From: a phage
DNA length: 64,000 bases
Reading direction: 5' to 3' (one strand)
Assembly: GCA_025611195.1 (NCBI GenBank)
Contig: GCA_025611195.1_4718.1
The notes beneath the pieces were generated by a model. That model ran no database searches. It worked only from the letters and a program-made list of their open reading frames with translations, and was not told the DNA's origin. The position numbers and the translations under genes were made by a program. This document shows positions 5,528 through 56,663 of the stretch, in pieces (the stretch's first letter is position 1; every line of letters starts with the position of its first letter).

Positions 5528-5551
5528 CACCTAGGTAATATAGCCGTGAAA
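5528..5551 (-). promoter_or_regulatory. conserved TATATTAC-containing motif (candidate phage promoter)
   Basis: Plus-strand CACCTAGGTAATATAGCCGTGAAA; about 25 nt upstream of ATG 5503 on the minus strand. Confidence 0.45.
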
Positions 5552-18821: not shown

Positions 18822-18911
18822 CTAAAAAAGATCCTCTGTTTTTCACGTTAATTAAACAACGTATTGATTTCTATTTAACGCAATACGAACATTGTACGTA
18901 TGCATCATGAA

Positions 18912-18929
18912 GGTAATATAGTCGTGAAA
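18912..18929 (-). promoter_or_regulatory. conserved TATATTAC-containing motif (candidate phage promoter)
   Basis: Plus-strand GGTAATATAGTCGTGAAA; about 90 nt upstream of the first gene of the small-gene cluster (ATG 18821). Confidence 0.45.
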
Positions 18930-52267: not shown

Positions 52268-52669
52268 TTAAAACATACGTTCGTTTTTAGCACGTGCGGC
52301 CATTACCAGATCGTAGATACCCGCGGTTCGTAAACATTCGTCGTAGTAACGATGTGCGCCTTCCTCAGCCATCCATGATAACCCACGACTATCCGCAACA
52401 ATAACCAATTTGTTATTGTTGAATGCACACACAACACGGTAAGTCGCGTTGTTATTCGGATCGCGAGTGATCAGTTCATAGACACCGTTAACAGGTTTAC
52501 TGAATTCGCCATTTAACGGGACGAGTTCGGTAGTACCTTCAGCAAACGTTACGTTGATCGGAGAAGGATCTTTAGCGATAACAGTATATTCCACATTGTG
52601 TTCTTTACTGGTCATAATGCCGAAGTAAGAACTGATAGGAGAACGCGGTACACTAAGAATATTAAACAT
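52268..52669 (-). CDS. small hypothetical protein
   Basis: ORF 52268..52771 trimmed to ATG 52669 with AAGAGGA upstream. Confidence 0.45.
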   Translation of the reverse strand: MFNILSVPRSPISSYFGIMTSKEHNVEYTVIAKDPSPINVTFAEGTTELVPLNGEFSKPVNGVYELITRDPNNNATYRVVCAFNNNKLVIVADSRGLSWMAEEGAHRYYDECLRTAGIYDLVMAARAKNERMF

Positions 52670-52739
52670 GAAAGTTGTCCTCTTAATTGGATATAAATTG
52701 TTGAGTTTGTGATTGGGAAATGAAAACGTTGTTTCGGTT

Positions 52740-53312
52740 TTAGACGATGAGTGACCAGGTGGTAAGCACACCGCTTGCGAATTCGAGCTTAAGACGTTTA
52801 CCGATAAGTTGTTGTTGAATCATCTTTTCAGTGATACGTCGATCTTGCTGAACCGCTTTATCAAACGCTTCTTTCGCTTCGGCTTGGTAGAAGTTCGTTT
52901 CTTCGTTGTCGTCGATCTCTTCGAGAGCGTCATCGTCGATGTCAGCAAGTTTCACTCGACCGTTTTCATCAGGTTGTTCTGCAGGCTCATTGTCATAAGG
53001 CGTGTCTTTTGTTGGTGCGACACGATGATGCAACTCGACCTGTGTTAACATGATCTCCATCTCACCATCGATAGGGATGATTTCATCGGCGCAGCCGTTT
53101 TCGGTCAGCTCTCGACTTTCCAGTAATGTCGTGGTGACAGAGAACACCTCTTCAACAGGAACCTCATCATCGTCGATAGTGTTAACCGTATTGCTGGTAA
53201 CTTCGGCAACGACCATCAAATCGAATGCGTGAGGATCACCTGGCATTTTGATTCCTGGAAGTTTGTTGAGGTACCAAGGATCGAGAATCATGATTTCTGG
53301 ATTAAACATCAT
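52740..53312 (-). CDS. acidic hypothetical protein
   Basis: 190-aa D/E-rich ORF with GAAAGG upstream of ATG. Confidence 0.45.
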   Translation of the reverse strand: MMFNPEIMILDPWYLNKLPGIKMPGDPHAFDLMVVAEVTSNTVNTIDDDEVPVEEVFSVTTTLLESRELTENGCADEIIPIDGEMEIMLTQVELHHRVAPTKDTPYDNEPAEQPDENGRVKLADIDDDALEEIDDNEETNFYQAEAKEAFDKAVQQDRRITEKMIQQQLIGKRLKLEFASGVLTTWSLIV

Positions 53313-53383
53313 TTTACCTTTCTATGTTAGGTGGATTGCGGATAGAAGAATCAATGCATAAACTAATTTAAGTTTGTTAAGGT

Positions 53384-54286
53384 TTACTTAGCCTTTGAGT
53401 TATGCGGACTAACATGCTGTTGTACTCGTTGGATTGTATCGTAGTACGGGTTAGATTGGTTGAACATGTTGTTGTGTGGGGGATAGCCATATGGCGCATT
53501 TTGCCTTGTTGGTGAGAAACCTTGTTGAGAAGGACGGTTTGAATTAACCGCGAGTACGTAGTAAACCAAATTTTGACGGTCGAATGTTCCTTCGTTTTTG
53601 AAAGTGTCGGCGTAGGCTTTTACCGCTGGAGTGAGCCTATCACCATCGGCTGTAATAATTGTACCGTCTGGGTAAACTTCCCGAACGACGCACCATGTTC
53701 CGATGAGAACATCTTTAGGTGCTGTATTACCATATCCGGTTGTAACGGTAAGGTAAGTATCGAACCCTTCAGAACAACAAGGATGACGATAGATGGGTCC
53801 TGTCATTTCCGTTCTATCGGTATCGCTACATTGTTCTATTGAGAGCGATGATGTGTCGGTTTTGAAATTGTCAAATTCTTTCTTTAAGTCGATTACGGGT
53901 TCTTTCGTATAGTACTTCTTGATTGCTTTGACGTAAAGATCAGGAACGGTTGTCAGCAATCCGTTATACCTGATTCTCAGGTTTTCGAGTAATCCAAAGA
54001 TGCTCGCGCATGCCTGTTCGCGAGGTTTTGTAAGATAAGAGATCCCCTCAGGAACGCTGGGATCTTTGAGAAAGAAGATTGCGTTATTGTCGTTGTGCGA
54101 TGCGTTGAAGAAAACGATTGATTCGATATATACGGAGCATAGGCTGTCATTGGCGTCGTCAGATAACACCCAGATGCACTCATCGGTCGTCTTGTTTAAA
54201 AGTTCTGTTTTGTCGACCAAACGTTGTTTCATTGCGAGGAAATGTGCCTGTTGTTCAGCAGTTAATTCACGATAAATAGTGGTCAT
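53384..54286 (-). CDS. hypothetical protein, paralog of 54372..55145
   Basis: ORF 53384..54364 trimmed to ATG 54286 (AAGGAG upstream); shared segment YRHPCCSEGFDTYLTVTTGYG...WCVVREVYPDGTIIT vs YIHPECHTTYDRYLTITGG...WRMIREIYPDGRIVT. Confidence 0.5.
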   Translation of the reverse strand: MTTIYRELTAEQQAHFLAMKQRLVDKTELLNKTTDECIWVLSDDANDSLCSVYIESIVFFNASHNDNNAIFFLKDPSVPEGISYLTKPREQACASIFGLLENLRIRYNGLLTTVPDLYVKAIKKYYTKEPVIDLKKEFDNFKTDTSSLSIEQCSDTDRTEMTGPIYRHPCCSEGFDTYLTVTTGYGNTAPKDVLIGTWCVVREVYPDGTIITADGDRLTPAVKAYADTFKNEGTFDRQNLVYYVLAVNSNRPSQQGFSPTRQNAPYGYPPHNNMFNQSNPYYDTIQRVQQHVSPHNSKAK

Positions 54287-54371
54287 GTTGGGCTCCTTGA
54301 TTACGATAAGGATGATTGCGGTTTTGTGGGTTTGGTAGGGCCCTAAACAAAGGAACCCTACCAATATTAGG

Positions 54372-55145
54372 TTAATCAGGATCGGCGTAGAAATGGTGAG
54401 GATAGCCGGAGTACGATCCTGCGTTACCGGCTATGGATTCTTTCTGGGAATCGACGACGAGCGCATAGAACTGTCGGGAATTTGTTAGCGTTGAGAAATA
54501 AGCGGAAAGGACTTTTTCATTCAATGCATCACAAGGTAGGCAGGTGCGACCGCAAAACGTCACGATACGGCCGTCAGGATAGATCTCACGAATCATTCTC
54601 CACTCACCGATATCCACTGGTGATGGCGCTGCTACACCACCTGTTATCGTTAAGTAACGATCGTACGTGGTATGGCATTCAGGATGAATATAGATCGGCT
54701 TGTTCGTTTCGACAGGTTCCGAAGTATCTCGACGACTAAGAAGCTCAACGACTTCAAGATAAATCGTTGGTAGATCGCGGAGAATACCGGTGCTACGACG
54801 TTTCTTTGTGATTCGCGGACGAATCTCGTTGAGAGCGTATTCGAGCTTACGTTCAGCTTCGTACGCATCGAGTTTTATCAAGCGACCCGGTTCATCGGAA
54901 TGATCCTGAGTTACGTAAACGAAATACGTGTCGCCTTTTGCAGCGTGAAAGATTCGAGCGACCTTAAATGTTTCTACGGTACGATAACCAAGGCGCGATT
55001 GATTTTCCACAGGAGAAAATATCCAATGCCGTCCTTCGTCAGCCTCAACAATTTCGTTGAAACTATCTGTCTGTTCTGGGACCTGGTAGTCAGCCAGTAA
55101 TGTGTCGAGAGCATCATCAGCCAGTTTGATGTAAATATCTGTCAT
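54372..55145 (-). CDS. hypothetical protein, paralog of 53384..54286
   Basis: ATG 55145 with GAGGA upstream; preceded by the TATATTAC-type motif and a palindrome. Confidence 0.5.
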   Translation of the reverse strand: MTDIYIKLADDALDTLLADYQVPEQTDSFNEIVEADEGRHWIFSPVENQSRLGYRTVETFKVARIFHAAKGDTYFVYVTQDHSDEPGRLIKLDAYEAERKLEYALNEIRPRITKKRRSTGILRDLPTIYLEVVELLSRRDTSEPVETNKPIYIHPECHTTYDRYLTITGGVAAPSPVDIGEWRMIREIYPDGRIVTFCGRTCLPCDALNEKVLSAYFSTLTNSRQFYALVVDSQKESIAGNAGSYSGYPHHFYADPD

Positions 55146-55201
55146 GTTTGTATCCTCGGTTATTAAGAGAAATTTACAGTGATAACAGTAAGCGTTGTTA
55201 T

Positions 55202-55225
55202 CACCTAGGTAATATAGTCGCGAAA
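55202..55225 (-). promoter_or_regulatory. conserved TATATTAC-containing motif (candidate promoter) overlapped by a palindrome
   Basis: Plus-strand CACCTAGGTAATATAGTCGCGAAA; about 57 nt upstream of ATG 55145; inverted repeat GTGATAACA-N8-TGTTATCAC at 55179..55204. Confidence 0.45.
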
Positions 55226-55259
55226 TAAACTGGAGTAATGCGCTTAAGACAGCATAAAC

Positions 55260-55291
55260 CCCTCTCCCAACCCGTCAGGGAAGGGAGAGGG
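55260..55291 (-). terminator. conserved two-tier GC hairpin (family copy)
   Basis: CCCTCTCCC/GGGAGAGGG stem, loop AACCCGTCAGGGAA; immediately after stop of 55296..56663. Confidence 0.45.
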
Positions 55292-55295
55292 AATA

Positions 55296-56663
55296 TTAAA
55301 CGGTTGGACGAACGGTATTGTCTTTTTCTGGTGCGATCCATAACGTGACCGTACCATGGCATGTCCACTGTGGTTCACGTACAGAAGAACCCGCCATCGT
55401 TACAGCGCAATCGGTACGCATGATGACCCCATATGCTTCGCAGAGGTTGTTATCCTGCATCCACACAACTTTAGCGGGCATACCGGGATACAACAGATCC
55501 ATGTTTGCGTATTCCCACACCAACTGCATTGTTCTACCGCGTAATCCAGCAGTATTGCTTATTTCACGCCATCGGTTATCGGTTACGCGTCCCATCCCTT
55601 TCGCCACCTTCACGTTATCGCTACGCTCTTCAGTTACGTACTCGCTAACGTTTACGGTACGACTGATTATGGTATCGCCCCCCTTTGATAATGTCATCCC
55701 CTGACTCATCTGACTTGCCGAAACAAAACGCCCACCCGCATTACCTAACAACGAAGCCGCGTTATTGACGTCGCTTACCGACGCCCCTCTCGTACATGCA
55801 ATTTCCACGTATTTGTCGCGATTGATCCAGGTCTTGTCCATACCCGGAAACATATCGGCAGGATAGTTGTAAAAGATAGCTGTACGTCGACCGTCAGAGA
55901 AACGGGTTTCGTCGTATAAGGGGTAGATATACAGATACGGGGATTGATAATAACAACCGACATCTGCTGAATAAATACCAACCTGGTTCTGGATTTTATC
56001 TACGAGATCCATCGCATTGGTACCGTGTGGAAGAATAAGCAACTTGAATGGGTTGTCGTTATTCGGTGCAACGATATCCACACCCTGCATTTTGAATCCG
56101 GTGTCAGCTTCAACCGCAGAAAGTATCTTGCTGAATTCAAGGCGCAACACATCCAGCACTTTCGATCCAGTATAGTTCTCACCGGTTTCTGATTGCATGA
56201 AGCTTTCAAGAACAGGATCGAACAGTTGAAATTGAAGATCGACCATTTGTTCGTAGTCTTTCTTCGAAGAATCGGTTGCGGTACGTTCGTCGGTAGCAGA
56301 CATACGACTGTCTACGGTTGTTAAACAGACCGCCCGGTAGACATAAGCCTGTGCGGCATCGTCTACGGTTTGGCGTTGTCCGCGCATCAGGCTGTACGCC
56401 TGCACGATGATGCGCATTTTAAGTTGTTGTTGGTACGGTAGAATGTATTTTCCGTAACTGCCTGGTGGAAACTTTACAGAGATATAAAGTTCATCCCCTG
56501 CGTTACGTTCATAGTCTCGATACGTGTGGACTTGAGTCACTAAAGGAACAGACACCGTCATTGACGGCGTGATTAATTCCGCGGTGACTTTATACGCAAC
56601 AGCAACAGCTTCCTGCGCAAACGTACCGATATACCGTCCTAACGGCGTCTGTTTGTAATCCAT
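55296..56663 (-). CDS. putative virion protein
   Basis: 455-aa ORF in a tightly overlapping run of long minus-strand genes near the capsid gene. Confidence 0.55.
   Translation of the reverse strand: MDYKQTPLGRYIGTFAQEAVAVAYKVTAELITPSMTVSVPLVTQVHTYRDYERNAGDELYISVKFPPGSYGKYILPYQQQLKMRIIVQAYSLMRGQRQTVDDAAQAYVYRAVCLTTVDSRMSATDERTATDSSKKDYEQMVDLQFQLFDPVLESFMQSETGENYTGSKVLDVLRLEFSKILSAVEADTGFKMQGVDIVAPNNDNPFKLLILPHGTNAMDLVDKIQNQVGIYSADVGCYYQSPYLYIYPLYDETRFSDGRRTAIFYNYPADMFPGMDKTWINRDKYVEIACTRGASVSDVNNAASLLGNAGGRFVSASQMSQGMTLSKGGDTIISRTVNVSEYVTEERSDNVKVAKGMGRVTDNRWREISNTAGLRGRTMQLVWEYANMDLLYPGMPAKVVWMQDNNLCEAYGVIMRTDCAVTMAGSSVREPQWTCHGTVTLWIAPEKDNTVRPTV

Follow-up and report, generated by a model that had tools for sequence, protein, structure and literature searches.

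A copy-number-variable family of two-domain paralogs behind a predicted early promoter in a Goslar-like jumbo phage

Two tandem paralogs and their domain architecture

The window, i.e. the whole 64,000-nt stretch of phage DNA that was analysed, contains on its minus strand two adjacent genes, A (54372-55145, 257 aa) and B (53384-54286, 300 aa), the second with an AAGGAG sequence ahead of its ATG and with orthologs of equal length in relatives. The regions flanking the pair are 94-95% identical in blastn to Escherichia phage vB_EcoM_Goslar, and by its sequence the window is that of a Goslarvirus, a nucleus-forming jumbo phage. Goslar itself (MK327938), a nucleus-forming jumbo phage of the Chimalliviridae, has a genome of 237 kb. 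Both genes lie in a slot bounded by the gene for a 455-aa virion protein on one side and by a conserved gene for a 189-aa protein on the other. Just past the stop codon of the 455-aa gene there is a GC-rich inverted repeat, CCCTCTCCC...GGGAGAGGG (55260-55291, minus strand), conserved in relatives, which forms a terminator-like hairpin at the upstream edge of the variable slot. The 189-aa gene (52740-53312, minus strand), located directly downstream of B, encodes a protein with a pI of 4.15 and 42 Asp and Glu residues against 15 Lys and Arg, for which no family match was found. Sequences containing TATG, the core of phiKZ late promoters, were read by eye on the minus strand at 53330-53345, upstream of the 189-aa gene, and at 55240-55250, just after the GC-rich hairpin, and both are conserved.

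BLASTP aligned A with B at E=3e-17 and 37% identity over ~119 residues (A146-251 / B160-271), so that the similarity is real and far beyond chance, and the motif by which the initial annotation had recognised a tandem pair with a common C-terminal domain falls inside this alignment. Comparison of the A and B ortholog groups as profiles (hhalign) gave a probability of 99.5% and E=2e-22 over 230 columns, matching A 1-254 with B 1-271, and the tandem paralogy and the common domain are thus borne out in both the pairwise and the profile-profile comparison. A scan of the locus for inverted and direct repeats found no nucleotide-level repeat between A and B, indicating that their duplication is old.

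An exhaustive hmmsearch with an A+B profile against 1.84 billion representative proteins returned four real clusters, which we designate A (254-271 aa), B (277-300 aa), C (286 aa) and D (291-300 aa), and one repetitive false positive. A further profile search added C-domain-only proteins of 148-150 aa, in which the MTxIY start of the full-length members is missing, and a 134-aa protein encoded in some loci matched the N-domain profile (E=1e-12 to 1e-14) and had no match to the C-domain profile. Homologs of A formed 19 clusters, with full-length ORFs kept at 47-95% identity, and homologs of B formed five; the proteins returned by word-indexed searches all come from ~240-kb contigs, which belong to assemblies of E. 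coli, Salmonella and Shigella or to metagenomes. Profile searches of the rest of the window and of the entire Goslar genome yielded no additional family copies, and A and B had no match in 50,697 phage records (tblastn), in complete E. coli genomes or in plasmids (both megablast). Searches of Pfam, PHROGs, NCBIfam and PADLOC, in which the neighbouring genes were also scanned, gave nothing at or near thresholds for A, B, C or D, and there was no match for the family in the PDB sequence-profile search or in the BFVD structure search, nor any significant fold match. As judged from these searches, the family is confined to Goslarvirus, the Goslar-like giant phages of E. coli and Salmonella, and comprises four full-length types besides N-only and C-only forms; it is undescribed until now and has no recognisable relatives or fold.

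In the full-length members an N-domain of alpha/beta type (~135 aa), which evolves fast, is connected through a linker to a conserved C-domain (~85 aa) rich in beta structure, and the protein ends in a disordered tail with many aromatic residues and histidines. In the AlphaFold models, built from a 35-sequence family alignment, the N-domains of A and B reach a pLDDT of ~80-93. The N-domain of A covers roughly residues 1-138 (54732-55145; pLDDT 80-93) and is joined by a linker to the C-domain, roughly residues 150-235 (54441-54698), which was modelled at pLDDT 60-83; the tail (54375-54440) is disordered (pLDDT <50) and carries an invariant YPHHFY motif. In B, the N-domain (roughly residues 1-125, 53912-54286) is followed by a long linker (53807-53911), the C-domain (roughly residues 161-250, 53537-53806) and a disordered tail rich in Y, P, H and N (53387-53536), all of these segments, as those of A, being encoded on the minus strand. 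Judged by their sequence properties, the family proteins appear to be soluble and mildly acidic, with no evident hydrophobic segment at the N-terminus.

Seventeen residues are invariant across all paralog types, and all of them except the initiator Met belong to the C-domain (Y152, H154, P155, D162, Y164, L165, V177, G180, W182, R186, E187, D191, G192, T196, G199 and P204 in A numbering). Among A orthologs C198, C202 and C205 are also invariant and C157 is nearly so, giving a CxxxCxxC arrangement plus a fourth Cys; this set is missing from B, C and D, and a Cys4 zinc-binding module was considered for the C-domain of A only. The aromatic/His motif of the tail reads GYPHHFY in A, GYPPHNNMF in B and QPYNHNRFGNNF in D, is invariant among A orthologs, is kept in a 25-aa remnant found in Goslar (see below), and may be a short linear interaction motif.

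Both A and B are under purifying selection, with dN/dS of 0.04-0.32 among close relatives, compared with 0.01-0.06 in the structural genes that flank them, and are therefore real genes; in one comparison the value for the N-domain reaches 0.6-0.7. The genes of the family are constrained, yet evolve faster than their neighbours.

Relationship of the N-terminal domains and exchange between phages

The initial annotation had described the N-termini of A and B as unrelated, proposing a duplication followed by N-terminal replacement. According to this model only the C-terminal domain was duplicated, or an unrelated sequence replaced one N-terminus, and A and B would be fusions with non-homologous N-termini. 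The restriction of the A/B BLASTP alignment to the C-terminal ~119 residues, the identity of just 28% in the N-domain compared with 45% in the C-domain, and a cassette-like replacement of N-domains seen between alleles of A are all in its favour. However, when the alignments were cut to the N-halves only, these still aligned in hhalign with a probability of 95% and E=2e-8 over 120 columns, whereas N-versus-C control comparisons gave E=0.1-0.2. Moreover, several BLASTP alignments between paralog types span the proteins end to end, the 134-aa N-only protein fits the shared N-domain profile with the E-values given above, and the start MTxIY..L is common to all full-length members. The predicted order of secondary-structure elements is also identical in the N-domains of the A and B models, consisting of a beta strand, two helices, four strands, a long helix and one or more terminal strands. 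Non-homologous N-termini thus appear very unlikely for this pair, and the full-length profile match, the match between N-halves, the modelled element order and the common start together point to a whole-gene duplication, with the N-domain diverging faster than the C-domain.

Replacement of the N-terminus, set aside for the A/B pair, does describe the relationship between gene A alleles of different phages, which have exchanged homologous but very divergent N-domains as cassettes. When the window was compared with the related locus L011, the flanks, the C-domain of A and B were 94.5-94.9% identical in nucleotide sequence, whereas nucleotide similarity was undetectable across the N-domain of A (window 55125-54698). 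Likewise, the two A proteins are 36% identical in their N-domains and 95% in their C-domains, and dS is saturated (2.6) in the A N-domain only, against 0.2-0.26 elsewhere. The breakpoints of the exchange are located just after the MTDIY.KL start and at PIY.HPEC, where the C-domain starts. This comparison of sequences documents a swap of the A N-domain as a cassette between phages of 94-95% identity.

A predicted early promoter and the variable slot

Upstream of A, at 55207-55225 on the minus strand, there is a motif of the early (virion RNA polymerase) promoter type, TTTCGCGACTATATTACCT, with its core TATATTAC at 55209-55216, followed by the palindrome GTGATAACA-N8-TGTTATCAC (55179-55204, minus strand), which has 9-bp arms and is retained in Goslar and other relatives. 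Both elements had already been pointed out in the initial annotation, and the promoter proved to belong to a recurring class. The 19-mer TTTCRCGRCTATATTACCT is found exactly three times in the window, where 0.05 occurrences are expected, each time on the minus strand and ahead of a gene; the other two copies of the motif are at 5533-5551 and 18911-18929. By itself the 8-mer TATATTAC shows no enrichment in the window, with 3 occurrences where 1.9 would be expected, and only the extended 19-mer is informative.

A scan of the whole Goslar genome identified ~13 equivalent intergenic sites, all on the minus strand and facing the downstream gene, including one at 172978, directly upstream of gp189, which encodes the chimallin nuclear-shell protein. 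Chimallin is an early gene in phiKZ-like phages, and the phiKZ promoter motif reportedly belongs to the early class. A G is present exactly 6 nt after the TAYATTAC core in 16 of 16 sites (13 in Goslar and 3 in the window). Experimental mapping in phage AR9 gave the early consensus AAATATATATTAT-(6N)-G, also written ...ATATATTAT-(6N)-G, the G being the start used by the injected virion RNA polymerase, and the predicted promoters of phiKZ (TATATTAC) and 201phi2-1 agree with the motif of the window. The Goslarvirus sites share with these early promoters the core, the 6-nt spacing to the G and an intergenic position facing the downstream gene, and differ from that of AR9, which has an A-tract, in their extended upstream half, TTTCRCGRC. 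The AT-rich core TATATTA[C/T], the G located 6 nt downstream and the site ahead of the chimallin gene support the assignment, by sequence, of the window motif to the jumbo-phage early (vRNAP) promoter class, TAYATTAC-N6-G. In a scan for sigma-70 promoters and terminators no signal rose above shuffle expectation and none lay at the promoter of A, and no Rfam match was found in the region 52500-56000.

By analogy with the AR9 start, transcription would initiate at the G at 55202 (minus strand), 6 nt after TATATTAC. The palindrome may be an operator but, because it begins at this predicted start, could equally be a stem-loop at the 5' end of the mRNA, and RNA folded from +1 forms a 7-bp 5'-terminal stem-loop of -6.7 kcal/mol. 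A stem-loop at +1 is present in 9 of the 16 predicted transcripts, a weak enrichment over background (Mann-Whitney P=0.035), which lends weak support to a 5' hairpin as a general property of early transcripts.

Between A and B there is a hairpin, GGTAGGG...CCCTACC (54334-54362, minus strand), that is devoid of a U-tract, and no terminator was seen between the two genes or after B. Therefore, the transcription unit probably continues into the 189-aa gene and the next two genes, the 189-aa gene being probably co-transcribed from the same early promoter as A and B, and such read-through would explain why the promoter is kept where the array has been deleted. A hairpin of the form GGTAGRG...CYCTACC is present upstream of the last family gene in every locus (L002 5793, L003 5784, L011 5793), with a loop that in the window, L011 and L012 is reverse-complemented relative to L002-L005. 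A family-specific 5' leader, CATCCTTATCGTAATCAAGGAGC (54292-54314, minus strand), holds the Shine-Dalgarno sequence of B. The leader pattern occurs once in the window and nowhere else in Goslar, and in the fetched loci its exact form is found only upstream of B-type genes. The leader CATCCTTAYCGTAATCAAGGAGC or a close variant precedes the B-, C- and D-type genes examined and matches at no other site in the window or in the loci fetched; it was hence part of the unit that was duplicated.

The blastn breakpoints and the Goslar annotation indicate that the segment 53361-55140 (1780 bp, containing both genes) is absent from Goslar, where only 89 bp take its place. In relatives carrying a B-type gene the slot holds A+B, 210aa+A+B, 134aa+A+B or 210aa+134aa+A+B, where the 134-aa gene encodes the N-only protein; in those carrying a C-type gene it holds A+C+D, 134+A+C+D, A+C+D', 134+A+C+D' or 210+A+C+D', where D' encodes a C-domain only. 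B and D occupy the same position, with a common leader and downstream flank, and are just 27-30% identical. Loci were also fetched via the flanking 455-aa gene, giving a sample that is not biased toward carriers. No family gene is present in three of the nine resolved loci of this sample (Goslar, L025 and L031), D stands alone in one (L034), and two to four family genes are found in the other five, so that copy number among relatives ranges from 0 to 4.

Where the 210-aa gene occurs, it lies between the 455-aa gene and the promoter (L003 4226-4858, L006 3738-4448, L024 4115-4846), and it is absent from the window. An assignment of its product as an R-S-E ADP-ribosyltransferase, suggested by the spacing of LYRG, SFTD and QREY read by eye, was rejected, as Pfam, PHROGs and PDB gave it no support.

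The three null loci share an identical 25-aa ORF, MTLLIRDPSEYENTRYNHNQFGNNF, which at the DNA level corresponds to the promoter region joined to 45 nt from the beginning and 30 nt from the end of a D gene, and L034 represents an intermediate in which the promoter is followed by an intact D. This plausible ORF is an in-frame deletion remnant of a D-type gene, identical in three independent genomes. In Goslar it is annotated as gp047 (MK327938 49584-49772; L001 4381-4569), a 62-aa product whose start lies upstream of the early promoter, and the same allele occurs near 8171 in L025 and L031. Because the annotated start precedes the promoter and the ORF joins the two ends of D, gp047 is a deletion remnant with a wrong start. 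In a metagenomic contig (L013 5832-6500) a C-type gene is cut to 222 aa, diverging after residue ~201, apparently by a frameshift, as another sign of ongoing decay of the array. Since Goslar forms plaques without any of these genes, the family is dispensable.

Proposed role of the family

The best explanation of the whole, which we judge somewhat more probable than not, is a two-domain family exclusive to Goslarvirus, arranged in a hypervariable array under an early promoter and encoding dispensable accessory proteins that act on the host. Genes of the A/B family are the promoter-proximal genes of a unit behind the predicted early-type (virion RNA polymerase) promoter. The array arose by tandem duplication of whole genes, 5' leader included. 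Recombination at the conserved starts of the genes and at the boundary between the domains reshuffles it, and stepwise deletion leads to its loss. The early-type promoter, the dispensability of the genes, their presence/absence and copy-number polymorphism, the cassette exchange of one domain and the restriction to a single genus lead us to infer that the proteins are cytoplasmic early accessory factors that act on the host and serve either counter-defence or host takeover. Target specificity would lie in the variable N-domain, and the conserved C-domain together with the tail would provide a shared activity or docking.

The array is of a familiar kind, a multigene family restricted to one lineage and located in a hypervariable region of a phage genome; its nearest analogues are the T4-like internal-protein (IP) locus and the early ORFans of phiKZ-like phages. 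In principle, nothing found so far is surprising. The T4-like IP locus holds lineage-specific genes, varying in number between conserved genes and differing among close relatives, whose products have a short common N-terminus. The Goslarvirus slot resembles it in its varying gene number between conserved genes and in the short conserved N-terminus, but has an early-type promoter and two-domain paralogs of 250-300 aa with no sequence similarity to the IP proteins. The early host-takeover proteins of phiKZ-like phages, such as the degradosome inhibitor Dip, are lineage-restricted, have no recognisable domains and act in the host cytoplasm. The A/B family resembles them in being early-type, lineage-restricted and devoid of recognisable domains, with a presumed host role, whereas it has no sequence or fold similarity to proteins such as Dip, and it varies in copy number and shuffles its domains. 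PUA-like or YTH-type alpha-beta folds and small beta-barrels of the OB/Mop type are also among the closest known systems, with no fold match reaching significance.

A more specific version of the host-acting role can be formulated, although we regard it as rather unlikely in its entirety. The family would be a counter-defence or immune-sensor decoy system of modular build, restricted to Goslarvirus and made in the first minutes, before the phage nucleus, in which each N-cassette neutralises a different host factor and the C-domain and tail, with a previously unseen fold, provide the common mechanism. Once the nucleus has formed, jumbo phages of this kind are protected against many defences that target DNA, and host factors can act earlier.

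Three other roles are less well supported than an early role in the host. The genes could serve phage-phage competition, superinfection exclusion or the modulation of persistent (carrier-state) infection, given that almost all genomes of Goslarvirus stem from assemblies of bacterial isolates rather than from plaque isolates, that Goslar, the one plaque isolate, is without the array, and that presence/absence polymorphism is typical of such accessory functions. However, the 25-aa null allele is also carried by L025 and L031, which are not plaque isolates, so that the array has been lost outside the plaque isolate as well, and the idea that it is tied to Goslar as the only plaque isolate is weakened; a role of this kind seems unlikely.

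The proteins might instead be packaged in the virion as internal or ejected proteins, like those of the T4-like IP locus or the inner-body paralogs of phiKZ, with MTxIY as the packaging signal. This would fit the position of the slot among virion genes (those of the major capsid protein, the head-tail joining proteins and the 455-aa virion protein), the conservation of the extreme N-terminus in all paralogs, and a hypervariability like that of the T4 locus. In internal proteins of this type a prohead protease cuts off the N-terminal targeting sequence; the family has the conserved MTxIY..L start, to which no cleavage motif could be assigned. It is nevertheless very unlikely, since the promoter is of the early-consensus class found also ahead of the chimallin gene and is the sole recognisable one directly upstream of A, where a late-type motif was not identified, while the C-domain-only forms have no MTxIY start and Goslar makes functional virions without the family.

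Decaying or selfish filler, transiently maintained and with no adaptive function, would account for the frequent deletions, truncations and the frameshifted C copy and for the viability of phages without the genes, but is the least likely of all in view of dN/dS values that in many lineages are far below 1 for either domain, of the residues invariant across all paralog types and of the full-length ORFs kept at 47-95% identity.

The preferred explanation remains that of dispensable early proteins acting on the host. Because the laboratory model Goslar is a natural null, gain-of-function tests are simple. The analysis also corrects the annotation of Goslar gp047 and gives a working early-promoter consensus for the genus. 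Goslarviruses have by now been recorded in hundreds of isolates of E. coli, Salmonella and Shigella, and in a dispensable family behind an early-type promoter, present in 0-4 copies and with swapped N-domains, it is reasonable to look for determinants of host range, counter-defence or persistence. If the modular counter-defence version were true, the slot would be the first described anti-defence diversity hotspot of a chimallivirus.
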